Shown: positions 5,146 to 57,872 of the stretch, piece by piece
How the letters are laid out: each line of letters begins with the position of its first letter
Numbering within the stretch: position 1 is the first letter of the stretch
Source of the DNA: an uncultured Spirochaetia bacterium
Lineage (GTDB): Bacteria > Desulfobacterota_D > UBA1144 > Nemesobacterales > UBA2774
Length of the DNA: 64,000 nt
NCBI GenBank assembly: GCA_964586675.1
Contig: CAZPHQ010000009.1
Coordinates: 16,216-80,215, forward strand
Direction: 5' to 3'
Notes under the pieces: model-generated
The model's input: the letters and a program-made list of their open reading frames with translations, nothing else
Database searches by the model: none
What the model was told of the DNA's origin: nothing
Position numbers and translations under genes: made by a program

Positions 5146-6144
5146 CTACAAAGCAGAAGAATCACATGGCCCCTGACCAGGGTCCGGAATACAAGTGAGT
5201 CCTGCCAGGTACGTAACGCAGTTTAGAAAGAACATCAGGTTGTTCTCCATGGTTACTATTCCCGGGGCCGGATCCGGGGACCCATAATCTCCCACCATTC
5301 CCGAGTTGCCCACCACGATAACCTTCCCTTGGCCATATGGAACCAATATCGAGAAATAGTCATTCGGCAAGTCTATATCATGTCCCACTGCATTATCGTA
5401 TGCTGTTGCCCCTTCGGGAAACCTTACGAGAGGAGTAAATTCAGAAGGCGGCAGCATTATGCAGGAATCGTGAGCGGAAACGCGTGCGACCTGATTGGCA
5501 AGATATCTGACGTCTTCCGGCAAATCCGGCTCCATCTCCATCACCATGTAATCAGGGCGATCCGGATGTTTGTGGGTGACAAAGATGTCCCTGAGGGTAA
5601 TTCCGAACACGCTCGCGAGGGCGGCATCGTTTTGGGTCCAGTTTGGGATCTCTGCAGTTGCGCCATGGTCGCTCATAAGGAGAATACCCCCTCCCTGACT
5701 GACAAAATCCTCCAGCGCCGCCAGCTCGAAATCTGTATATGAAAAACCCGTGCCATCCGGAGGCGGGTTGGGCTCATTAATATAACGGGTCAGGCTGACG
5801 TAGACATCCACATTCTCCAGGCGCTCCGGTCTTATTCGAGACTTAGTGTAACGCACATTCCATTTCAGCCCCGTGGAAAGCCCGTAACTCCTGATAGCTC
5901 CCAGGACTGTATTCAGACGCCGCTTGGTTACCTGGGGGTGTCCGACACCGGGAGGATAACGATGCGGCTTCCTTTGAAACATCACCTGAGAGCTCCAGCT
6001 ATCGAAGAGTGTGTTTATCGTGTTGTTTGCGGTGGCTTCCGCTTGCAGGTCCGTGTCAATGCCCGCAAAAGCAAAATCGCCTTTAAGCAATGCGGCTCCG
6101 GTTCCGCCCAGGGCAAGGAACTTTAAAAAATCTCTCCGGTTCAT
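5146..6144 (-). CDS. Tat-signal secreted hypothetical protein
   Basis: 332 aa. N-terminal twin-arginine motif (NRRDFLKFLALGGTGAAL). No confident family assignment. Flanked on both sides by repeat clusters. Confidence 0.7.
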   Translation of the reverse strand: MNRRDFLKFLALGGTGAALLKGDFAFAGIDTDLQAEATANNTINTLFDSWSSQVMFQRKPHRYPPGVGHPQVTKRRLNTVLGAIRSYGLSTGLKWNVRYTKSRIRPERLENVDVYVSLTRYINEPNPPPDGTGFSYTDFELAALEDFVSQGGGILLMSDHGATAEIPNWTQNDAALASVFGITLRDIFVTHKHPDRPDYMVMEMEPDLPEDVRYLANQVARVSAHDSCIMLPPSEFTPLVRFPEGATAYDNAVGHDIDLPNDYFSILVPYGQGKVIVVGNSGMVGDYGSPDPAPGIVTMENNLMFFLNCVTYLAGLTCIPDPGQGPCDSSAL

Positions 6145-17298: not shown

Positions 17299-17748
17299 AT
17301 GGAAAAGGTGGTCTGCACTCATCCGAGGGCTAAGCGCGATTACGACATCGAGGAAAATTACGAGGCCGGCATCGAGCTCAAGGGCTCCGAGGTAAAATCC
17401 CTCCGCGCGAACCAGGCGAGCATAAAGGAGAGCTTCGCCATGATCAGGGACGAAGAGGTGTTTCTCATTAACAGCTACATCGCCCCCTACGAACAGGCGA
17501 ACCTGTTCAACCACGAGCCCCGGCGCGAGCGTAAGCTCCTCCTCAACAAGCGCGAGATAAACCGCCTCATGGGGAAAACCCTCATCCGCGGCTACACCCT
17601 CATCCCGCTCAAGATCTACTTCAAGAAAGGGAAGGCTAAGGTCGACCTCGCCCTCGGCAAGGGAAAGAAAGTCCACGACCGCCGCGACGACATCAAGAAG
17701 CGCGAGGCCGACAGGGAAATGGAAAAGGCCTTAAAGCGTCGCTACTGA
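17299..17748 (+). CDS. smpB: SsrA-binding protein
   Basis: 149 aa, collinear with SmpB (…AKRDYDIEE.YEAGIEL.GSEVKSLR…GYTLIPLKIYFK.GKAK…). Confidence 0.95.
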   Translation: MEKVVCTHPRAKRDYDIEENYEAGIELKGSEVKSLRANQASIKESFAMIRDEEVFLINSYIAPYEQANLFNHEPRRERKLLLNKREINRLMGKTLIRGYTLIPLKIYFKKGKAKVDLALGKGKKVHDRRDDIKKREADREMEKALKRRY

Positions 17749-17884: not shown

Positions 17885-18237
<353 letters not shown>

Positions 18238-25203: not shown

Positions 25204-25512
25204 ATGCCCCCCTGTTTGCTTAAATTGCACCTGGAATTAACTCTACTGGAGTACGTAAAGTGATGTCAATACCGCCGAATGGCCGGATCTGTTATTAAAT
25301 CGGCTGGCTTTGCATTCGTGCTGCCCGGCTTTGACTCAACAATTAAGGGACGATGCAAGCGGCCGATCTCATAAATTGCCCGGATTCGCATTTGTTCCCT
25401 TATAAGTAATCAGCAAGAGGCCGCCAAGTATGGCGATTATTCCGTAAGTATAAACAAAAAGGGAGCCTTGCAGGCTCCCTTTCATAATAAACTCTGTACA
25501 ACAATTTTATTT

Positions 25513-26442
25513 TTACGATAGACGTGTCTTTCTTCTGTGTATTATCAGCGCCCCGGCAATTCCTATAATTCCGGCCAAGGCGATAAGCCCCCATTCGGAA
25601 AGCGTCGGGATCGGATTAGGCAGGACAAGCCATATTTTTTCGACCGGTATCGATTCCAGCCCATCGACCGATGCCGTTATCCTGTCCGTACCAGGCGCAG
25701 AGCCTGTGTATGTCCACGACACCTGTCCGTTCGTATCGGTCCGACAGTCGATTGGGGAGCATTCACCGCTGCTGTTGCTCGCCTGACCGAGATTCGGTCC
25801 CGCAACCACCCTGAAAAATACAGGAGTACTGACTGAAGGGGATAGGTTGTCGAGCACCGTAGCCGTGACAGTGTGCTGTGTTCCGGTATCGTTCGTCGCC
25901 GTCGGAGGGGCTAATGAAATCGTGAAGTTCGAAGTGCAAAGGTAATTTTCAACCGTGAAGCTGTAATCGCAGGTAAATGTACCGAAACTAGTCATGGCGA
26001 CCAGAACCAGGCTGCTTCCCGCAGGCACTTCGAATGAAAAGCTTTGTGGAAGACTCGATCCGATATCGCCTATGTAATTTTCGCTCAGGTCTGCCGGATT
26101 ATACGAGTTGAGATAAGCCGCGGCGAATACGTTCGTGCCGCAGGTCCCCGTATTGAAATTGACGGTTACGCAGCTCGTGCTATTGGGGGCACGGAAAGCA
26201 TGTGTCGCGTAATTGAATGTCGTACCGGCGTCGAAAGTGCCCGGGAATGCCTTTGTCGGACAAGAGCTCGGTACGGCGTCTCTGAATAATCTGCCGTTCT
26301 GGAAGGGCCCGGTAGCTGAATTAAGAGAACCGTTTATAACCTGGCCGGCGTCGGGGCACACCTGACCTGCCGCATCGTTCGCGCTGAAAACCAGTACTGA
26401 ACTAAAGATAATCCCGAACAGGATTCCGTAGATTTTCATCAT
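25513..26442 (-). CDS. secreted Cys-rich protein with IPTL-CTERM sorting signal
   Basis: N-terminal signal peptide. C-terminus ...PNPIPTLSEWGLIALAGIIGIAGALIIHRRKTRLS, giving an IPTLSEWG motif + TM helix + basic cluster (IPTL-CTERM class). GGAGGA RBS. Confidence 0.8.
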   Translation of the reverse strand: MMKIYGILFGIIFSSVLVFSANDAAGQVCPDAGQVINGSLNSATGPFQNGRLFRDAVPSSCPTKAFPGTFDAGTTFNYATHAFRAPNSTSCVTVNFNTGTCGTNVFAAAYLNSYNPADLSENYIGDIGSSLPQSFSFEVPAGSSLVLVAMTSFGTFTCDYSFTVENYLCTSNFTISLAPPTATNDTGTQHTVTATVLDNLSPSVSTPVFFRVVAGPNLGQASNSSGECSPIDCRTDTNGQVSWTYTGSAPGTDRITASVDGLESIPVEKIWLVLPNPIPTLSEWGLIALAGIIGIAGALIIHRRKTRLS

Positions 26443-26685
26443 TCCTCCATCCTCCTTTTCTTCCTTTAATTTATAAATCCACTACACCCAGTATAGTAAA
26501 TAACTACAGAATAGCAACACTTTATATTTCATATTTCATGAATTTAAGTAGTCATAGATGAATTTCGATATACATAGCTGGAGACCCGGCACTTCGATTT
26601 TCGTTATAACCCGCCGCCCAACGACGGACTTATGTTAAAATCAATGCCTTAATCCCTGAATCGATACGACAAGAGGTATACGAAC

Positions 26686-29913: not shown

Positions 29914-31470
29914 ATGGCGATGATGTCCCTGACCAAAACAGAATCTGGACCATATTTTTTCCCTGAAAAAGGGATGTACAGGTTGCTGCTGCTCTTCTTA
30001 ATCTTTTTAGCCGGCCTTGCGGTTCGCCTGAACGATATCAATATCCCTCCCATGGATTTTCATCCGATCCGCCAGTACCGTTCGTTCAAGCTCGCAAGGG
30101 CTCTTTATTTCGAATCCTCGGATTCCATCTCGCAAAGCGATAAAATCATTGCGGAGGCCGCGAAGCCTTTTCAGCTCGAACCCCCAATTCTGGATTACAT
30201 GACAGCCTTCCTCTACCATATTTTCGGCGGGGAAAACATGGTAATCCCGCAAATGCTCAGCATCCTGTTCTGGCTGTGCGCCGCCGTGCTGATACTCAAG
30301 CTCGCCGAAGACCTCATATCCCCCGACGCGGGGATAATAGCGGTTGCCTTTTTCCTGTTCCTGCCCTTTGGGATAAGGGCCAGCCGAAGTTTCCAGCCGG
30401 ACCCGCTCATGATAATGATGTTCGTGGCTTCGATCTATGCCATATACAAGTACTATTCTAATCCCTCAAACCGCCTGCTCGCGCTCGCGTGCGTGCTCTC
30501 GGGCCTTGCCGTTTTCGTAAAACCAGTATGCATCTTTCCCATTCTGGGCGCTTTCATGGCTTTGAGAATAGCCACCATGGATATCAGTAGCGTTTTTTTC
30601 AGGCGCGATGTATTCATATTCGCCGCAGCGATCATCGCACCGTCCGTTTTATATTACTGTTACGCTATTTTCATAACCGGACTTTTGAAGATCCAGGCCG
30701 ATCAGAGTTTCGTGCCGTCTTATTACCTCACATACCGTTACTGGCGTGACTGGTACCATCTGGTAAACGCCGTCATGGGTAGGTGGAGCGTAGCTTTATC
30801 TATTCTGGGAGTGCTACTATTACGGTCCAAAATACAAAGAGCGTTCCTTTTCGGTTTGTGGTCGGGTTATGTCGTTTACGGACTCTTCTTCACCCATCAT
30901 ATAAGCACTCACGATTACTACAGCCTTATGCTGATCCCTATCGGTGCTCTTTCGCTCGGCGGCCTGGGCTCGTTACTTCTGCAGGAGTTCAAATGGAGCA
31001 AAGGCATCCTCCGCTTTGCGGTATGGTGTGTATTCGTGGTTCCAATTCTCTTTACCATACGTGACGCAACCTGGCCGGCGAACGATGCGGATTTTCAAAA
31101 GACGATTAAAATGTACGAAGAGATCGGAGACCGCGTGAACCACAGCACAAATACGATTTTCCTCGACAAGTATTATGGAGACGTTCTCTTGTATTACGGC
31201 AAATTTGCAGGGAGGTATTGGCCGAACAGGGATGATTGGGAATTCGCAGATAGAAGCCATATAGAAAGAGGGAAAACCCTTCTGGATCACTATATAGCCA
31301 AAAAAGCCTACGAATATTTTATTGTCAGCAGCATGGAGGAGCTTGTGGATCAGCAGGATTTAAAAAAAGTGCTTGACGAGAGATATGTCGTTGTGGCGGC
31401 TACTCCCGATTACATCATTTACGATATGAAACAACATAAAACGCCTGCCGGCGGGAACGGCGATCGATAA
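29914..31470 (+). CDS. GT-C fold membrane glycosyltransferase (ArnT/PMT family 39-like)
   Basis: 518 aa. Roughly 11 TM helices in the N-terminal two thirds, then a soluble C-terminal domain. Resembles the dolichyl-phosphate-mannose/undecaprenyl-phosphate-sugar transferase family. Lower-GC block. Confidence 0.65.
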   Translation: MAMMSLTKTESGPYFFPEKGMYRLLLLFLIFLAGLAVRLNDINIPPMDFHPIRQYRSFKLARALYFESSDSISQSDKIIAEAAKPFQLEPPILDYMTAFLYHIFGGENMVIPQMLSILFWLCAAVLILKLAEDLISPDAGIIAVAFFLFLPFGIRASRSFQPDPLMIMMFVASIYAIYKYYSNPSNRLLALACVLSGLAVFVKPVCIFPILGAFMALRIATMDISSVFFRRDVFIFAAAIIAPSVLYYCYAIFITGLLKIQADQSFVPSYYLTYRYWRDWYHLVNAVMGRWSVALSILGVLLLRSKIQRAFLFGLWSGYVVYGLFFTHHISTHDYYSLMLIPIGALSLGGLGSLLLQEFKWSKGILRFAVWCVFVVPILFTIRDATWPANDADFQKTIKMYEEIGDRVNHSTNTIFLDKYYGDVLLYYGKFAGRYWPNRDDWEFADRSHIERGKTLLDHYIAKKAYEYFIVSSMEELVDQQDLKKVLDERYVVVAATPDYIIYDMKQHKTPAGGNGDR

Positions 31471-31515
31471 ATCCCGGAATCGGCACGCAGGGTAATAATT
31501 ATTGAGAGGCCTGTC

Positions 31516-31896
31516 ATGAGAAATAAATATGCAATTCTCGCGATAATTCTTCCGATCATTATACAGTTTACGGAACTCGCGGCGGCCGACGTGCCTCCGT
31601 CGCAGAAGCCCGAGGTCGAATTCCTTATAGAGACGGTACGCACGACCGACTGCAAATTCGACAGGAACGGCAAGAAATACGACGGCAAAAAGGCGGCCAG
31701 CCACCTCGAAAGAAAATACAACCATTACAAGGACGAGATAACCTCGACGGAAACCTTCATAGAATATGCCGCGACGAAAAGCATGATTACAGGCGCGGAT
31801 TACTACATCATATGCCCCGGGGCCGCGCCTGTAAGGTCGCAGGACTGGCTCCTCCAGAAGCTTTCGGAATTCAGGAAGAAAAACGAAGCGAACTGA
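31516..31896 (+). CDS. secreted DUF5329-like protein
   Basis: Signal peptide. ...C.F.RNGK.Y.G..A..HL.RKY..........TE.FIE.AA..S...G..Y.I.C.G pattern reminiscent of DUF5329. Confidence 0.5.
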   Translation: MRNKYAILAIILPIIIQFTELAAADVPPSQKPEVEFLIETVRTTDCKFDRNGKKYDGKKAASHLERKYNHYKDEITSTETFIEYAATKSMITGADYYIICPGAAPVRSQDWLLQKLSEFRKKNEAN

Positions 31897-38323: not shown

Positions 38324-39232
38324 ATGAGGCCCCGGAAAATACACGTAATCCTTTTTCTGCTGACGGTTCTGACGACGTTCCTGACGGGGCTCGGCATGTG
38401 GGGGAGCTACCTCAATGCCGCGCTCTTCTCCGGGGCGCTTCTCTTCATACTGGGCGCCCACGAAATGGGGCACTACTTTTACGGCAGGAAATATGGAATA
38501 GACATCACACCGCCCTATTTCATCCCGGCCCCGCCCGTAATCTCCCCGATAGGCACATTCGGCGCATTCATAAAGATAAAATCCCCCATATATTCCAAGA
38601 AGGCCCTCTTCGACATAGGCATCGCGGGCCCGCTCGCGGGGATCATAGCCACGATACCGATAATGATAGCGGGGATAGCGCTGTCGACGTTCGTCAACCC
38701 CGAAAATGTCAACGGGAATGGCGGCTACATGCTCGGCATCCCGCTTATATTCGGATTCGTGGCCGAAACCATATTAGGCCCCGTGCCCGAAGGGCAGAAC
38801 ATATTCCTCCACCCACTGGCCTTCGCCGGGTGGGTGGGGCTTTTCGTAACGGCACTTAACCTGATCCCCTGCGGTCAGCTCGACGGCGGCCACATCGTTT
38901 ACGCCCTCTTTTCGAAGCGTTTTCACAAGATAGTCTCCGGGCTCATGATAGCCGTCCTGTTCGTGTTCGGCGTCGGGACAGAACCGCTCCTGGCCCTCGC
39001 GGAGAAATACGGCGGCGCGGCTGTCGCGCCGTATCTCGCCCACGTGCCCGTCTTCGGGGGCTGGCCGGGCTGGGTCCTCTGGGCGGCCCTCCTCACGCTC
39101 ATGGGTACGCGCCACCCGCCGACATACTATGAAGACGGCGGACTCGGAGCCGGCAGGATGGCCCTCGGCCTCCTCTCGCTCCTCATATTCGTAGGGTGCA
39201 TTTCGCCCGTGCCTATCTCGCTGGCGTATTAA
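38324..39232 (+). CDS. site-2 protease family (peptidase M50) intramembrane metalloprotease
   Basis: HEMGH zinc motif inside a TM helix. Multi-pass membrane protein. Confidence 0.85.
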   Translation: MRPRKIHVILFLLTVLTTFLTGLGMWGSYLNAALFSGALLFILGAHEMGHYFYGRKYGIDITPPYFIPAPPVISPIGTFGAFIKIKSPIYSKKALFDIGIAGPLAGIIATIPIMIAGIALSTFVNPENVNGNGGYMLGIPLIFGFVAETILGPVPEGQNIFLHPLAFAGWVGLFVTALNLIPCGQLDGGHIVYALFSKRFHKIVSGLMIAVLFVFGVGTEPLLALAEKYGGAAVAPYLAHVPVFGGWPGWVLWAALLTLMGTRHPPTYYEDGGLGAGRMALGLLSLLIFVGCISPVPISLAY

Positions 39233-42363: not shown

Positions 42364-42416
42364 TTCGCTTCAATTCCCTCTTTGGGAAAAGGAGGGTCAG
42401 GGAGGATTTATTTTTT
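42363..42416. repeat. divergent copy of the G-rich hairpin unit between convergent genes
   Basis: tcaattccctctttgggaaaaggagggtcagggaggattta parallels tcaatcccccttaggaaaaggggggtacggggggattta. Confidence 0.4.
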
Positions 42417-43229
42417 CACTTCCTTCCCCGCGTCCGTGTTGGCCTCTATACCCTCCATCATCCTGAGCGCATACTTCCTGTTCTCGTACCAGTCGGGGTA
42501 AAAAGAGGGCTTCTTGTCATCCAGCAATAATCTCAGCTGCTCCATCGCGTCATCGAATCTCTTCTGCTTTATGTAATTCGCCGCGAGGTAGAGCCGCGCC
42601 GAGGAAAGGTGCGGGTCGATGTTGAGCGAGCGCTCAAGGTATATTTCGGAGATGTGAATGTCGCCGCCGAGAAGCCCCGGCAGGTAGAAATATAGCGCAC
42701 CGTTCATGGCGAGCCCCTCGGGGTGGTTCGGGTCGAGCTTGAGGATCGTATCCAGCTCCCTTCTGATCTCGGGCAGCATGAAGAGCGAATTGAAGAGTCC
42801 CTTCGTATCCCCGAGTGAAGCGAGGTTGGCGACGTAGAAGAAATGCGCGTCGGGATTATCGGGCTGCAATTTGACGGCCTTTTCCCCCTCTTTCTTCCCG
42901 TTCTCGAAAGCCCGTATGAGCTCGTCCTTCGTCCTTGCCTCGATATAGCCGTATGTCAGCCAGGCGCGCGAAAGGAAGAGGAGGGCGTCTATGTTATTCG
43001 GCTGAGCTTGCAGAACCCCCTCGGCGATTCGAATTGACTCATCGATACTGCCAGGCTTCTTGTAATAATCGCAAAGGAGCGTCCAGGCCTCCTGGAGCTT
43101 TTTCGAAGCGTCTGCCTCAGCTATGGATTCGGGCTCAGTGCCCGGCGCGGAATTCCCCGAAGAATTCGAGGCGGCTAAAAAGAGGACAATCAGCACGAGG
43201 CCGAATACGCGTAAAACAAAGAGCTTCAT
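42408..43229 (-). CDS. tetratricopeptide-repeat secreted protein
   Basis: Signal peptide, then several TPR-like helical repeats. Confidence 0.75.
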   Translation of the reverse strand: MKLFVLRVFGLVLIVLFLAASNSSGNSAPGTEPESIAEADASKKLQEAWTLLCDYYKKPGSIDESIRIAEGVLQAQPNNIDALLFLSRAWLTYGYIEARTKDELIRAFENGKKEGEKAVKLQPDNPDAHFFYVANLASLGDTKGLFNSLFMLPEIRRELDTILKLDPNHPEGLAMNGALYFYLPGLLGGDIHISEIYLERSLNIDPHLSSARLYLAANYIKQKRFDDAMEQLRLLLDDKKPSFYPDWYENRKYALRMMEGIEANTDAGKEVKK

Positions 43230-43252: not shown

Positions 43253-44281
43253 TCAGTCCAAACCAAAGGTTCCTATATCTTCTATGACCGCGTGGAGGAG
43301 AGAAATCGTATACGCTATGTCCGACTTGTAGGCGAGGCAGCTCGGGCTGTGAAGGTAACGTACGGGCACTGAAATCGACGCCGCACGCGTGCCCTTTCCC
43401 GTAATTTGCATTGCAGTCGCGTTCGTGCTTCCCGCTTTTTTGACGGTTATCTGGTAGGGGATGTCGTTCTTCCGGGCCGTCTCCATGATGAAATCGCTGA
43501 ACGGCCTGTGAGCGACAAGGAACCTGTCGGAGAGCCTCACCTCCGGGCCTTTGCCGCAGTTGGCGAGCGTCTTGTAATCAGTGACTCCTGGAACGTCCAT
43601 GGCCACAGTCCCTTCGAGCGCTATGGCGAAATCGGGCTCGATCGCGGGCGTGATGATGTGTGCGCCACGGAGGCCGACCTCTTCCTGCACGGTCGCCGTT
43701 AAATAAAGGTCGCACGACTGGACCGGATTTTTCCTCATCGCCTCTATCATGACGAAAAGCCCGACCCTGTCGTCTATGGCCTTCGATATGACCGCCTCAT
43801 CCGTCTCTTCGAAAGGATAGTAGAAGGAGGCGACGTCGCCTACGCCAACGAGCTCCCTGACCTTATCCCCCGAAAGCCCGACGTCGACGACGCAGTCCTC
43901 TATCTCGGACACTTCCTTATTGTTCGTGTTCCGGCTTATGTGGGGCGGTATGGCGGCCACCGTTCCGACAAGCGGCTTTCTGCCCCAGACGAGTATACGC
44001 TGCCCATAGAACACCCTCGGGTCCATCCCGCCGAGGGGTATGACTCGGAGAAAGCCCTTGCTGTCGATGTGGCTCACCATGAAGCCGACCTCGTCCATGT
44101 GAGCGTCGACTACCAGCCGCGGCCCGTCGCCCGGGACATGGGCGATGACGTTACCCATCGGATCCTCCGATACCTCGTCCGTGAATTCGGAGAAGAGTCT
44201 CTTGATAATTTCCCTGACGGGGCCTTCGTGGCCGGGGAGGCCCGTGGCCTCGCAAAGCTCGATGAGAAGAGGAGTGTTCAT
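43253..44281 (-). CDS. M42-family metallopeptidase (glutamyl aminopeptidase/FrvX-like)
   Basis: ...HMDEVGFMV..I...GFL....GG... and ...D.RVG.... motifs. Start chosen at MNTPLLIELCE by family collinearity. Confidence 0.85.
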   Translation of the reverse strand: MNTPLLIELCEATGLPGHEGPVREIIKRLFSEFTDEVSEDPMGNVIAHVPGDGPRLVVDAHMDEVGFMVSHIDSKGFLRVIPLGGMDPRVFYGQRILVWGRKPLVGTVAAIPPHISRNTNNKEVSEIEDCVVDVGLSGDKVRELVGVGDVASFYYPFEETDEAVISKAIDDRVGLFVMIEAMRKNPVQSCDLYLTATVQEEVGLRGAHIITPAIEPDFAIALEGTVAMDVPGVTDYKTLANCGKGPEVRLSDRFLVAHRPFSDFIMETARKNDIPYQITVKKAGSTNATAMQITGKGTRAASISVPVRYLHSPSCLAYKSDIAYTISLLHAVIEDIGTFGLD

Positions 44282-44428
44282 AGGAAAATTGATTATAACC
44301 AAAGCCGGGCGGATTTCCAGCCGTCCGGGGCGACAAACTTAACGCAAAATTCACGCGATTTTAACCGCCAATTTACCGGGCTCCGGCATTCTGTCCGGAA
44401 CGTTATTAAAACCCAATGGAGGAATAAG

Positions 44429-47269
44429 ATGGTGAGGATAAATTTCAGACAAAAACTGATGTACTGTTTTGCCTTTTTAGCCTTCGCGTCCTTTCCGGCG
44501 TCCGCGATCGCCGGGCTGGATCTTACGGCCATAGGCACCTATGAAACAGGCGTTTTCGAAGGCGGGGCTTCGGAAATTGTGGCGTTCGATCCCGAAACGA
44601 ACAGGCTTTTCGTAATCAATGCGACAGACGCCGTCGTCGACGTGCTCGACATTTCCGATCCGTCCGCCCCAGTTAAAATATCCACTATAGACGTAACTAA
44701 CGACATAGGCCCCAACTCCGGCGTCAACAGCGTAGACGTAAAGAACGGCCTCGTGGCAGTCGCCGCGGAAAACGCCGACCGGACACTTCCGGGCTACGTC
44801 GTCTTCTATAATACTTCCGGGCAATTCATTACGAGCGTAGGCGTAGGGGTTCTTCCCGACTCGGTCAAGTTCTCGCCCGACGGCCTCATACTCGTCACAG
44901 CGGACGAAGGAGAGCCAATAGAAGACGATGATGGCAACCTTATAGCCAACCCGCCGGGTTCGATAAGCGTGATAAACATTTCAAACGGCGTACAGTCGGC
45001 TGTGGTCACAAGGCTCGGCTTCGAAGCGTTCGACGGCAGGGAAGCCGAATTCACGCAGAAGGGGCTCAGGCTGCAGCAGGGCGTCCCGATGTCGCTCGAG
45101 CTTGAGCCGGAATTCCCGGCCATATCTCCGGACGGCACGCGCGCATACGTTACGATTCAGGAGGCGAACGCCCTTGCAGTGGTCGACCTCGTGAACCCCG
45201 CGATAATCGATCTTCTTCCCCTAGGTTTCAAGGATCATTCCAAAGGCGCGCCTGCGCTCCAGACATTACCATTCAAGAAATTCCCGAATCTCGGAAGGGA
45301 CGCGAACGGCGTTCAGATCAAGCTGGGCGGTTTTTCGGGTCTCTGGTTCGAGGGCCCGGTAAAGAACAAGGGCAGGATAAGATTCCTCACTGTCGGCGAC
45401 AGGGGCCCGAACGGCGCCGACGTGGTGGACGGCTCCCGCACGTTTAATCTCCCAGGCTACCAGGCGAGGATAGTGACGATAGAAACCAACCCTGAAAAGA
45501 AACAGAATGCCGAAATAATGAAGGGCAAAACGATATTCCTCACCCGCGAAGACGGCTCGACGCCTATAACCGGGCTTCCGAACATCCCCGGCCACGACGA
45601 GATACCAGTCGACGCAGTGGGCAATCCGGTCAGCTACGACGCATTCGGCGCCGACCTCGAAGGCATAGTCAGAGACCCTTCCGACAACTCCTTCTGGATG
45701 GTCGACGAATACAGACCGGCAATATACCACTTCTCCCCCGATGGAACACTGATAACCAGGCTCGTTCCGGAGAATACGCATCTCCTCGGCGACTCAGCCC
45801 TGAAAGAGGCCGAGTTCGGCCCGGACGCGAATTCCCCGGGATTTTACGGCGAGGAGGCGCTTCCTGAGGTCTACAGCCGGAGGATGCTCAACCGCGGCTT
45901 CGAGGGAGTAGCTCTCGATCCCGAAAAGAGGCTCCTCTACGCGTTCGTGCAGTCTCCGATGGAAAACCCCGACAGATCGACCCGGAGCTCGCTCCTCCTG
46001 AGGATACTCGCCGTCGACGTGAACGAATCGTCGCCGACGTACCTCAGCCCGGTCGCCGAGTACGTATATGTCCTCGAAAGACCGATTGTCACGCCTAGCG
46101 ACGTCGACAAGATCGGCGACGCGGTGTTCATCGGGCAGGACAGGTTCTACGTGGTCGAAAGGGACAGCTCCTTCGACACGGACGGAAAGAAATTCATATT
46201 CGAAGTAGATCTCGCCGGCGCGACCAACATCAGGAGCCTTCCCATAGCTGACGAGGCAGTGACGGGGACACTCGAGCAGCAGACACCCGACACCCTCGCC
46301 GAGCTCGGCATAAGGCCGGTCTTCAAGAGAAAGCTTCTCAACCTTCCATCGATCGGATATACGCCGAGCGACAAGACGGAAGGCATCGCGCTCCTCCCGG
46401 ACGGCAGGATTGCGGTGATTAACGACAACGACTTCGGCATAGAGGCGGCCGCGGGCCTCGAGCCAGTTCTGGGGATCATTTCCCTAGGCAGCAACCATGC
46501 GCTCGACGCCTCGGATGAAGACAGCGCCATAAACATCGTGAACTATCCGGTTCTCGGCATGTTCCAGCCCGACACGATAACGTCGTATGAGTTCGACGGG
46601 AAAACCTATTACGTCACCGCCAACGAGGGCGACACGAGAGACTTCGGCTTCTTCTCCGAAGAAGAGAGGGTGGAAGACCTGATACTCGACCCGTTCGTTT
46701 TCCCTGACGCTTCCGACCTCCTCCTCGAAGAGAACCTCGGCAGACTTAAGACGACGAACATAATCGGCGATATAGACGGGGATGGAGACAACGACAGGAT
46801 ATTCACTTTCGGCGCGAGGTCTTTCTCGATATGGGACTCCTTCGGGAACCTCGTCTACGACAGCGGCGACGACTTCGAGAGGATAACGGCCGAGCTTCTG
46901 CCCGACTTCTTCAACAGCGACAACACTGACAACGATTCCTTCGATTCCAGGTCCGACGACAAGGGTCCCGAGCCGGAAGTTATAGATATCGGCAGGGTAG
47001 GAGACAAGGTCTACGCCTTCATAGGGCTCGAAAGGATAAGCGGCGTGATGGTGTACGACGTGACGAGCCCGTTCGCACCGTTCTTCGTGACCTATGTCAA
47101 TAACAGGGACTTTTCAGTCGATGCTACCGACCCCGCAGCGGGAGATTTAGGCCCCGAGTGCATCAAGTTCGTCCTGGCGGAAGACAGCCCGAGCGGAGAG
47201 CCTATTCTAATAGTAGGCAACGAAATCAGCGGTACGACGACTATTTACAGCATAGTCGAAACAGAATGA
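44429..47269 (+). CDS. large secreted beta-propeller protein (choice-of-anchor-I / phytase-like esterase domains)
   Basis: 947 aa. Signal peptide. Repeated ...DP.....L(Y)V.......V.V.D... propeller-like segments and phytase-like ...EGIA.LPDGR..V..DND.. segments. GGAGGA RBS. The upstream in-frame extension from 43940 overlaps the M42 gene and is rejected. Confidence 0.8.
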   Translation: MVRINFRQKLMYCFAFLAFASFPASAIAGLDLTAIGTYETGVFEGGASEIVAFDPETNRLFVINATDAVVDVLDISDPSAPVKISTIDVTNDIGPNSGVNSVDVKNGLVAVAAENADRTLPGYVVFYNTSGQFITSVGVGVLPDSVKFSPDGLILVTADEGEPIEDDDGNLIANPPGSISVINISNGVQSAVVTRLGFEAFDGREAEFTQKGLRLQQGVPMSLELEPEFPAISPDGTRAYVTIQEANALAVVDLVNPAIIDLLPLGFKDHSKGAPALQTLPFKKFPNLGRDANGVQIKLGGFSGLWFEGPVKNKGRIRFLTVGDRGPNGADVVDGSRTFNLPGYQARIVTIETNPEKKQNAEIMKGKTIFLTREDGSTPITGLPNIPGHDEIPVDAVGNPVSYDAFGADLEGIVRDPSDNSFWMVDEYRPAIYHFSPDGTLITRLVPENTHLLGDSALKEAEFGPDANSPGFYGEEALPEVYSRRMLNRGFEGVALDPEKRLLYAFVQSPMENPDRSTRSSLLLRILAVDVNESSPTYLSPVAEYVYVLERPIVTPSDVDKIGDAVFIGQDRFYVVERDSSFDTDGKKFIFEVDLAGATNIRSLPIADEAVTGTLEQQTPDTLAELGIRPVFKRKLLNLPSIGYTPSDKTEGIALLPDGRIAVINDNDFGIEAAAGLEPVLGIISLGSNHALDASDEDSAINIVNYPVLGMFQPDTITSYEFDGKTYYVTANEGDTRDFGFFSEEERVEDLILDPFVFPDASDLLLEENLGRLKTTNIIGDIDGDGDNDRIFTFGARSFSIWDSFGNLVYDSGDDFERITAELLPDFFNSDNTDNDSFDSRSDDKGPEPEVIDIGRVGDKVYAFIGLERISGVMVYDVTSPFAPFFVTYVNNRDFSVDATDPAAGDLGPECIKFVLAEDSPSGEPILIVGNEISGTTTIYSIVETE

Positions 47270-51795: not shown

Positions 51796-51833
51796 GAAGG
51801 CTCCCGGAAAAGCCGGGCCGGGAGCCTCTTTTA
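51796..51833 (-). terminator. intrinsic terminator after the IPTL-CTERM gene
   Basis: ggctcccgg/ccgggagcc stem followed by a U-rich run on the minus strand. Confidence 0.55.
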
Positions 51834-51841
51834 TAATCCGA

Positions 51842-52354
51842 TTAAACGCCGGCGGTCTTCCGCCTCCTCAAGACGTAAAACGCTCCGGCAAGCCCGAGCC
51901 CGGCCGCCGCGGCGAGCATGCCCCATTCCGAAAGTGTGGGAATCGGCCTGATAGAGATGCTTTCGGGCGCGTTGATGAAGGTGCAGGTGCCGCTGCCGCC
52001 CGGAGCCGGGCACTCGACGAATATGCCGCCCCGAATTGGCGTGATCTCGAGCCCGCTGACTCCACAATCAACGTCGGCCAGCACCCAGTCTGGCAAAGCG
52101 ACCTCGACTACTCGCAAGTCGTTCGTGGGATCGAGAGGCAGAAAAGCGCATTCCGATCCGGCAACCAGATCGAATTCAAAAATGTCGCCGGGCCTTTGGC
52201 CAGTGAATGTGAAAACAGTGTCTCCAGCGCCCGGGGCCGATTTGCATATCGATATACTGCAGCTCTGGGCCCGGGCTTCATCTCCCGGTGAAGGAATGAA
52301 CAGGAAAGCAGATACGGCAAGTACGAACAAAAGGGTAGGTGTCAGGGATCTCAT
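51842..52354 (-). CDS. small secreted Cys-rich protein with IPTL-CTERM sorting signal
   Basis: C-terminus ...IRPIPTLSEWGMLAAAAGLGLAGAFYVLRRRKTAGV. Start at MRSLTP with GGAGGA RBS. Confidence 0.8.
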   Translation of the reverse strand: MRSLTPTLLFVLAVSAFLFIPSPGDEARAQSCSISICKSAPGAGDTVFTFTGQRPGDIFEFDLVAGSECAFLPLDPTNDLRVVEVALPDWVLADVDCGVSGLEITPIRGGIFVECPAPGGSGTCTFINAPESISIRPIPTLSEWGMLAAAAGLGLAGAFYVLRRRKTAGV

Positions 52355-52565
52355 AACATCCTCCAGATTCATGTATTAATGAGATTATGAGATATTTACG
52401 GCAGGATTTCAATGGACTCAAGCGGGTCTGTCATTCAGGGCGCATCGATCCTCCGCATCCGCCGCTCCCGGAGAATAGCCGGGCATGATTAATACGCCTC
52501 CTTGTTACGGTATAATGGCATAGGCGGGGGCGCATAAAGGCCGGCGAAGACGCGGAGGAAATCAC

Positions 52566-57047: not shown

Positions 57048-57872
57048 TCAGACCCGGAGTCTTCTTCTCGAGAGGTACACAGCCGACACGATTCCCAGGG
57101 CTCCCGCGGCGCAAATCATCCCCCATTCCGAAAGGGTAGGTATGGGAGTCGTAAGATCGACGACTTCGCCCACCAGCTGAAAGGCGAGGCCCCCGTCGTC
57201 CGCGCCGCAGCCCTGGAGCGGCGTGAAGGCGACGCATCCCGTTCCGAACCCGTTGCCCGGGTTCTCCCATACGGCGGCGCCAAGGTCCTGAACGGTCCGC
57301 TCGAACCAGAACCACTGTCCGTTGGGCACGAAGAGCATATCGGCCTGGACGGAGACCCAGTATCTTCCGGCGGTAAGCATGCAGGGCGCCGGCAGCTCGG
57401 TGCTGAAGCTGGGGTCGAGTATGTTATCGGGGAGTACATTTCTGTAATTGCAATACCAGATTATCCCGTCCGGCCTGGCACCGCGGTTCGTATAGAACAC
57501 TATATTGAGCGACTGTATCGGGTCGGGCGTGTCGTCGTATATTCCGAGCACATTCACGCGCTCTATGCGCCATATGTCTCCTTCCGGAATTTTGAAATCG
57601 TCTGCCGCACGCGTATCGTAGATATTGAACGAGCTGTCGCTGTCTATGAAATCCTGAGAGGAGATATCGGAATCGGCGACGTCATTGAACTGGTTCCAGA
57701 GCACGTTCGGCGGCGTGGGCGGGATAAGCGGGGCGGGGTCCTGATCGCGCATTATAGGCGCGCCGTTCGCCGACGAGAGCCGGGGCAGACAGAAAATAAC
57801 GGACAGGAATGAAAGCAGCAGGGCAATACGGAGATATTTTCCGGCACCTGACAGGCCTTCCGGGTTGCGCAT
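57048..57872 (-). CDS. secreted protein with IPTL-CTERM sorting signal
   Basis: C-terminus ...TTPIPTLSEWGMICAAGALGIVSAVYLSRRRLRV. Start at MRNPEG with GGAGGA RBS. Confidence 0.8.
   Translation of the reverse strand: MRNPEGLSGAGKYLRIALLLSFLSVIFCLPRLSSANGAPIMRDQDPAPLIPPTPPNVLWNQFNDVADSDISSQDFIDSDSSFNIYDTRAADDFKIPEGDIWRIERVNVLGIYDDTPDPIQSLNIVFYTNRGARPDGIIWYCNYRNVLPDNILDPSFSTELPAPCMLTAGRYWVSVQADMLFVPNGQWFWFERTVQDLGAAVWENPGNGFGTGCVAFTPLQGCGADDGGLAFQLVGEVVDLTTPIPTLSEWGMICAAGALGIVSAVYLSRRRLRV

Follow-up and report, generated by a model that had tools for sequence, protein, structure and literature searches.

Three genes on the minus strand of the 64 kb stretch of DNA analysed here (hereafter the window) encode predicted secreted proteins that share one kind of carboxy-terminal tail. 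The gene of protein 1 (25513..26442, minus; 309 aa in the ORF listing) codes for a signal peptide at about residues 1-26, an N-terminal beta-sandwich domain at about residues 27-170 (26364..25933, minus; placed by homologue alignment and an AlphaFold2 model), a Big_1-like Ig domain at about residues 172-272 (25929..25627, minus) and an IPTL-CTERM tail at residues 278-309. In this tail the IPTLSEWG motif (residues 278-285; 25588..25611, minus) comes first, after it the hydrophobic segment LIALAGIIGIAGALII (25587..25540, minus) and then the basic cluster HRRK (25539..25528, minus). Protein 2 (51842..52354, minus; 170 aa) joins a small Cys-rich passenger domain to its IPTL-CTERM tail, with the motif at 51921..51943 (minus), and protein 3 (57048..57872, minus; 274 aa) carries an acidic passenger domain and a tail with the motif at 57121..57143 (minus). 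Each protein has two hydrophobic segments, one of them N-terminal; signal peptides, that of protein 1 included, were judged by inspection of the hydrophobic N-terminus, as were their cleavage sites.

A tandem GGAGGA ribosome-binding sequence (26443..26455, minus) abuts the protein 1 start codon on its upstream side, and a promoter-like site, recognised by its consensus match only, lies at 26490..26517 (minus; TTGCTA, a 16 nt spacer and TATACT). An intrinsic-terminator-like hairpin with a 12 bp stem and a T run (25457..25483, minus) is found 30 nt past the stop codon. Given the promoter-like site, the double GGAGGA and the strong terminator hairpin, the protein 1 gene looks monocistronic. For protein 2, a promoter-like site was seen at 52384..52412 (minus) and a terminator-like hairpin at 51799..51817 (minus). 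Going by the ORF listing, proteins 2 and 3 could each be slightly longer; the start codons proposed in an earlier, sequence-only reading of the window are nevertheless the better calls, since GGAGGA stands 4-6 nt before them and the resulting products match public gene calls letter for letter. That reading had given each gene a GGAGGA ribosome-binding site, and one is indeed seen before all three starts.

The tails of the three proteins follow a single plan, in which IPTLSEWG(L/M) is followed by 16-18 hydrophobic residues and then by HRRK, RRRK or RRR, the basic cluster ending 3-6 residues short of the stop codon. The NCBIfam IPTL-CTERM model (TIGR04174) gave 31.4, 30.1 and 27.9 bits for proteins 1, 2 and 3, respectively, with a cut-off of 20.5, and PF18203 gave 32.8, 19.1 and 21.1 bits with a cut-off of 20.8, which proteins 1 and 3 pass and protein 2 misses by 1.7 bits. 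Other anchor models did not fit: for PEP-CTERM (TIGR02595) protein 2 stays at 12.3 bits against a cut-off of 16 and proteins 1 and 3 give no match, and for the LPXTG anchor (TIGR01167) protein 2 stays at 12.9 bits against 15.9; neither a PEP nor an LPXTG motif is present. The scores on NF033207, the family named "midcut-by-XrtH", were 26.1, 20.4 and 22.0 bits, all under its cut-off of 45, and these matches span model positions 31-65 of 175, that is, the tail region only; in each of the three proteins the motif stands at the C-terminus, unlike the mid-protein IPTL-like signal of NF033207. These sub-threshold matches nonetheless serve as a pointer to exosortase H.

The motif is short, and the shared tail could in principle be a chance similarity, or the leftover of a recently duplicated DNA cassette, with no function as a signal. 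Nothing else speaks for such an explanation, which is extremely improbable and is already refuted by our results. Besides the fact that all three proteins pass the curated TIGR04174 model, the back-translated motif has three matches in the window, against 0.00 expected from 100 dinucleotide-preserving shuffles. The codons of the motif vary among the three tails (ATC CCG ACG, ATT CCC ACA and ATA CCT ACC), and these synonymous differences indicate that the tail is conserved as a peptide and is not a recent DNA duplication. Among 120 motif-bearing ORFs, drawn from public genomes of many phyla and from contigs of this organism and picked by the motif itself, 115 have it at most 45 residues from the stop, followed by a hydrophobic stretch and RRR[RK]. 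Orthologues with overall identities of 63% and 82% also retain the motif unchanged, and IPTLSEWG is kept where the passenger domains of orthologues have diverged. We thus agree with the sequence-only reading in identifying all three tails as predicted IPTL-CTERM sorting signals.

The organism is assigned, by its marker genes, to Candidatus Dadabacteria from anoxic marine metagenomes. An SmpB gene (17299..17748, plus) is followed by a tmRNA (17885..18237, plus; Rfam RF00023, 173 bits), and this region has 82-90% DNA identity to Candidatus Dadabacteria MAGs. At 90% identity, the CTP synthase of the window clusters with proteins that, wherever an organism is named, come from Candidatus Dadabacteria or Thermodesulfobacteriota, Dadabacteria being a class of Thermodesulfobacteriota in the NCBI taxonomy. 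Proteins identical to those of the window are present in JGI, ENA and Logan assemblies, and this organism is represented in ENA ERZ23498995, ERZ23499007, ERZ23499038 and ERZ23498983 as well as in JGI 3300009106, 3300009110, 3300009126 and 3300009129. The nearest species-representative genome is the MAG CAZUDM01 (loci L017 and L074), which has about 86% DNA identity and is syntenic with the window over 50.5-62.7 kb; its deposit label, "uncultured Spirochaetia bacterium", is probably wrong, since the markers of the window point to Candidatus Dadabacteria. At least 4 IPTL genes are present on OZ244197.1, the closed chromosome of a relative. About 3.5 kb from protein 1 lie a PMT_2-type glycosyltransferase with 9 predicted transmembrane segments (29914..31896, plus) and a DUF5329 protein, an arrangement kept in all contigs of this organism, and it is conceivable that the PMT_2 enzyme glycosylates surface proteins. 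Elsewhere in the window, a 332 aa protein (5146..6144, minus) has a twin-arginine (TAT) signal and a Cys-rich C-terminus, and matches no family.

As had been claimed from the sequence alone, the mature domains of the three proteins are unrelated to one another (best BLASTP E = 0.11). All three are acidic, with a pI of about 4.0-4.3, and there are 8, 6 and 4 Cys in proteins 1, 2 and 3, respectively. The AlphaFold2 model of protein 1 (mean pLDDT 86.6) consists of two beta domains and a C-terminal helix (283-308), and its PDB fold matches are weak and generic, namely adhesin, S-layer and Ig tandems; the Big_1 match itself is below threshold (E = 9e-5). Protein 2 belongs to a family of Cys-rich IPTL-CTERM proteins of about 170-190 aa, with a weak match to the prealbumin-like SpaA_4; MAGs of Thermodesulfobacteriota and Dadabacteria carry from two to six genes of this family in a tandem array (loci L022, L026, L048, L052, L046 and L032). 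The passenger domain of protein 3 matches no family; its orthologue in the sister MAG (L017), the 82% identical one, keeps the motif.

Protein 1 has 13 full-length homologues, and about 100 further proteins share only its C-terminal Ig-like (Big_1-type) domain together with the IPTL tail, a cassette to which N-terminal domains of many different kinds are joined. Conversely, its N-terminal domain (25933..26364, minus), which matches no Pfam or NCBIfam family, also stands alone in proteins of about 200-240 aa. Conserved blocks of this domain are RxFRD, CVTVNF and NYxGDxGSS (homologues P0378, P0395, P0458, P0468 and P0474). The tails found on homologues of the N-terminal domain are IPTLSEWG, a degenerate IPTL-like form or a bona fide PEP-CTERM (26-27 bits on TIGR02595, cut-off 16), all at the same aligned position. 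The domain would thereby behave like an undescribed "choice-of-anchor" domain, and since it swaps IPTL-CTERM and PEP-CTERM anchors, the comparison supports treating IPTL-CTERM as the likely equivalent of an exosortase-type signal. A named domain of this sort is also encoded in the window: a protein of about 1109 aa (43940..47269, plus) combines a phytase-like domain with "choice-of-anchor I" (PF22494, E = 7.5e-116) and has no C-terminal anchor of any kind, and in two homologues of the protein 1 C-terminal cassette from other organisms (P0376 and P0443) choice-of-anchor I is joined to IPTL-CTERM.

In regards to the enzyme that would process these tails, no exosortase, rhomboid or CPBP-like gene was found in the 64 kb window, whose multi-pass membrane proteins are limited to SulP, an ABC-2 permease, the PMT_2 glycosyltransferase, an M50 protease and ExbB/TolQ. 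A six-frame hydropathy scan and an unfiltered search of every six-frame segment with two exosortase HMMs both gave nothing (best E = 4.3 for the HMMs), and the possibility of a hidden exosortase was rejected. The statement that no sorting enzyme is encoded within 64 kb therefore stands, the HMMs and the hydropathy scan being empty. An exosortase just past the window was likewise discarded: on contigs that carry the first and last genes of the window, a further 10 kb at either end was examined and contained none. The M50 site-2 protease (38324..39232), which the sequence-only reading had listed among the membrane proteases to be profiled against the motif, is an ordinary, general protease named RseP by JGI and shows no tie to the tail, and it was dropped as a candidate enzyme. 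A TPR protein (42408..43229) was considered as a PEP-CTERM component and rejected, its 42 bits on PrsT (cut-off 312) amounting to generic TPR similarity. Neither an exopolysaccharide locus nor a PrsK/PrsR-type regulator was seen in the window.

The same reading took the processing enzyme of this signal class to be experimentally undefined, and it named, as something that would count against it, the presence elsewhere in this genome of an exosortase or archaeosortase gene already known to co-occur with IPTL-CTERM. A co-occurring family of that kind does exist: the curated partner of IPTL-CTERM is exosortase H (XrtH, TIGR04177), whose homologues are named "exosortase H (IPTLxxWG-CTERM-specific)" by JGI and "exosortase H" by NCBI. 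What holds of the claim is its experimental part, given that the literature yielded no report of XrtH cleaving an IPTL-CTERM tail, nor of any IPTL-CTERM/XrtH biochemistry, and so no biochemical proof of cleavage. XrtH forms a very large family that spans phyla and numbers 5790 representatives (50% identity, E <= 0.001); Cys, Asn, Arg and His are invariant across its alignments.

The motif was scanned in the codons of this organism, with one genome per species, and the scan yielded 98 tiles from Dadabacteria, other Thermodesulfobacteriota, Planctomycetota, Acidobacteriota, Bacteroidota and Betaproteobacteria. In seven MAGs, which represent three phyla, an XrtH-type gene adjoins one with an IPTL tail. 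Small multi-pass ORFs by the motif in two betaproteobacterial MAGs reach 225.6 and 209.6 bits on TIGR04177 (cut-off 86), and in four Bacteroidota MAGs and one Planctomycetota MAG XrtH is the best family for the adjoining ORF (81-103 bits). At these loci the IPTL gene and XrtH share a strand and the IPTL gene is mostly directly upstream, one Bacteroidales XrtH having IPTL genes on either flank. From the enzyme side, a strict IPTLxxWG gene is found at 4 of the best 80 metagenomic XrtH loci, each time immediately upstream and on the same strand, against a chance expectation, roughly estimated, of about 0.03. This adjacency in three phyla confirms the predicted functional pairing of IPTL-CTERM with XrtH.

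Several features of these loci were recorded alongside. XrtH genes with the active-site motif GCDAIEP, which is the non-betaproteobacterial type, are followed on their downstream side by an ORF of about 214-248 aa that overlaps them by 14-23 nt and belongs to no Pfam family (L192 4788..6051 and L196 8001..9627, as well as L033, L038, L063, L081 and L098), and this ORF may encode a conserved partner protein. In five proteins (L038 4802..6190, L058 386..775, L059 1070..2833, L073 1801..3246 and L085 6927..8000) IPTLSEWG, a transmembrane helix and a basic cluster lie mid-protein, with 80-300 residues beyond them; at least two of the five have a second hydrophobic segment, and the one in L038 is encoded directly upstream of XrtH. 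Their layout is similar to that of "midcut-by-XrtH" proteins, though they belong to other phyla.

The sequence-only reading found the lack of linkage noteworthy, a view that does not survive the comparison with other genomes. Any exosortase was present in just 8 of the 98 IPTL tiles, and with the 4 linked loci among the best 80 for XrtH, linkage is missing for over 90% of substrates and enzymes. Scattered substrates with the enzyme elsewhere are the normal layout of C-terminal sorting systems, in which one enzyme serves many substrates, and since linkage is rare, the absence of the enzyme from the window is to be expected. Usitatibacter offers an example, as the MAG tiles with IPTL genes (L031 and L103) hold no exosortase while NCBI annotates a Usitatibacter XrtH (P0075).

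The reading we favour, in which an XrtH encoded elsewhere in the genome acts on the three proteins, has to be weighed against another, in which the Dadabacteria lineage has no XrtH and the tail is either cut by some other membrane enzyme or left uncut as a permanent C-terminal anchor. We consider this second possibility unlikely, even though part of the evidence leans its way. The window and its 10 kb flanks together cover about 84 kb of this organism and hold no exosortase; this is, however, a small share of the genome, and even in lineages that do bear XrtH at least 90% of IPTL genes are unlinked. By an approximate count, an XrtH-type gene is present in 0 of about 40 IPTL tiles from Thermodesulfobacteriota or Dadabacteria and in 7 of about 58 from other phyla, a contrast compatible with an unlinked enzyme, though a slight probability of a lineage without XrtH is left. 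None of the named XrtH matches listed is from Dadabacteria: the best 120 of 2863 profile-search matches are all betaproteobacterial-type or seed copies, a cluster look-up of ten diverse XrtH representatives returned no organism names, and none of the best 80 metagenome XrtH loci, which share about 51-70% identity with the betaproteobacterial query throughout, is from datasets holding this organism (contig prefixes Ga01179xx and Ga01187xx). However, these were only the best 80-150 matches, in which other phyla are dominant, so that a missing Dadabacteria XrtH says little. The literature likewise gave nothing on Dadabacteria exosortases. A further point against a lineage without XrtH is the eight-residue motif, which is identical to that of the XrtH-adjoining tails in Betaproteobacteria, Bacteroidota and Planctomycetota and argues for a homologous recognition enzyme; the size of the XrtH family and its span across phyla count on the same side.

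An exosortase of another kind could also be taken to favour a lineage enzyme other than XrtH. A Desulfobacterales MAG encodes a distinct protein of 467 aa with two exosortase-like domains in tandem (L056 6593..7996, plus), about 4 kb from a cluster of secreted paralogues, one of which has an IPTL-CTERM tail. No named subfamily scores above its cut-off on this family, which has 33 members; as none of them is from Dadabacteria, it was set aside as the enzyme of the lineage. Two XrtH representatives that shared the multi-source pattern of the window proteins were also followed up and proved to come from unrelated samples.

Compared with the catalogued IPTL-CTERM/XrtH system, the tripartite tail is the same, the proteins of this host score above the curated cut-off, and several substrates with unrelated passengers occur per genome, likewise here; the difference lies in the host, which belongs to Dadabacteria, whereas the XrtH-adjoining substrates are from Betaproteobacteria, Bacteroidota and Planctomycetota. 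In the PEP-CTERM system, one polytopic Cys/Arg/His enzyme, exosortase A (XrtA/EpsH), serves many dispersed substrates (Haft 2006, PMC1569441). The logic shared with it is that of a signal peptide, a passenger, a short motif, a transmembrane helix and a basic cluster, and homologues of the protein 1 N-terminal domain bear PEP-CTERM in place of IPTL-CTERM; the motif there is PEP, against IPTLSEWG in our three proteins. The pairings of PGF-CTERM with archaeosortase A and of LPXTG with sortase A are outlined in a preprint (bioRxiv 10.1101/2023.06.07.544157). Both are C-terminal tripartite signals removed by a dedicated membrane-associated enzyme, as IPTL-CTERM would be, but their motifs and enzyme subfamilies are unlike those of IPTL-CTERM. 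Sortases and exosortases, moreover, are not known to be related in fold.

Near to protein 1 in size and layout is the S-layer protein mela_00855 of Methylomirabilis lanthanidiphila, an IPTL-CTERM protein according to PMC8671808, in which an exosortase is not mentioned. Concerning function, the passengers of the PEP-CTERM-tailed homologues gave weak matches to PepA (NF033554, 40 bits, cut-off 80) and FxDxF (NF038126, 30-31 bits, cut-off 50), all of them sub-threshold, and neither family is matched by protein 1 itself. PepA is required for floc formation in Aquincola (PMC9850573). This likeness is a possible lead on function, not a family assignment.

Taken as a mechanism, the course of events that we hold to be probable begins with Sec export, continues with tethering through the C-terminal helix and ends when an unlinked XrtH removes the tail. 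The three genes would encode precursors of cell-surface or matrix proteins of Candidatus Dadabacteria, each made of a Sec-type signal peptide, an acidic beta-rich passenger and the IPTL-CTERM signal. Once exported, the precursor would remain anchored to the inner membrane through the C-terminal helix, its Arg/Lys cluster facing the cytoplasm. A polytopic enzyme of the XrtH subfamily, with its invariant Cys/Arg/His, would then recognise IPTLSEWG on the outer side of the membrane and cut off the tail, whereupon the passenger could be released or transferred to a surface acceptor; many substrate genes, scattered over the genome, would depend on a single enzyme gene located elsewhere in it. The presence of XrtH in this genome, the cleavage itself and the attachment of the mature protein are the parts of this scheme that we infer. 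A surface role is proposed given the beta-domain model of protein 1, with its weak adhesin and S-layer matches, and the IPTL-CTERM S-layer protein of Methylomirabilis.

The three genes are ordinary instances of a catalogued system, whose signal class, HMMs and predicted enzyme are already in public annotation libraries. What is gained is the documentation of IPTL-CTERM substrates in marine Dadabacteria, backing for the IPTL/XrtH pairing from raw gene neighbourhoods in three phyla, and the swap of IPTL-CTERM and PEP-CTERM anchors on the N-terminal domain of protein 1. It is very unlikely that Dadabacteria, and perhaps other Thermodesulfobacteriota, carry many canonical IPTLSEWG proteins and no XrtH, with an undescribed membrane enzyme reading the signal. 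Were this true, the assumed pairing of one signal with one enzyme family would be broken, and the lineage would provide a clean comparative-genomics handle on the new enzyme.
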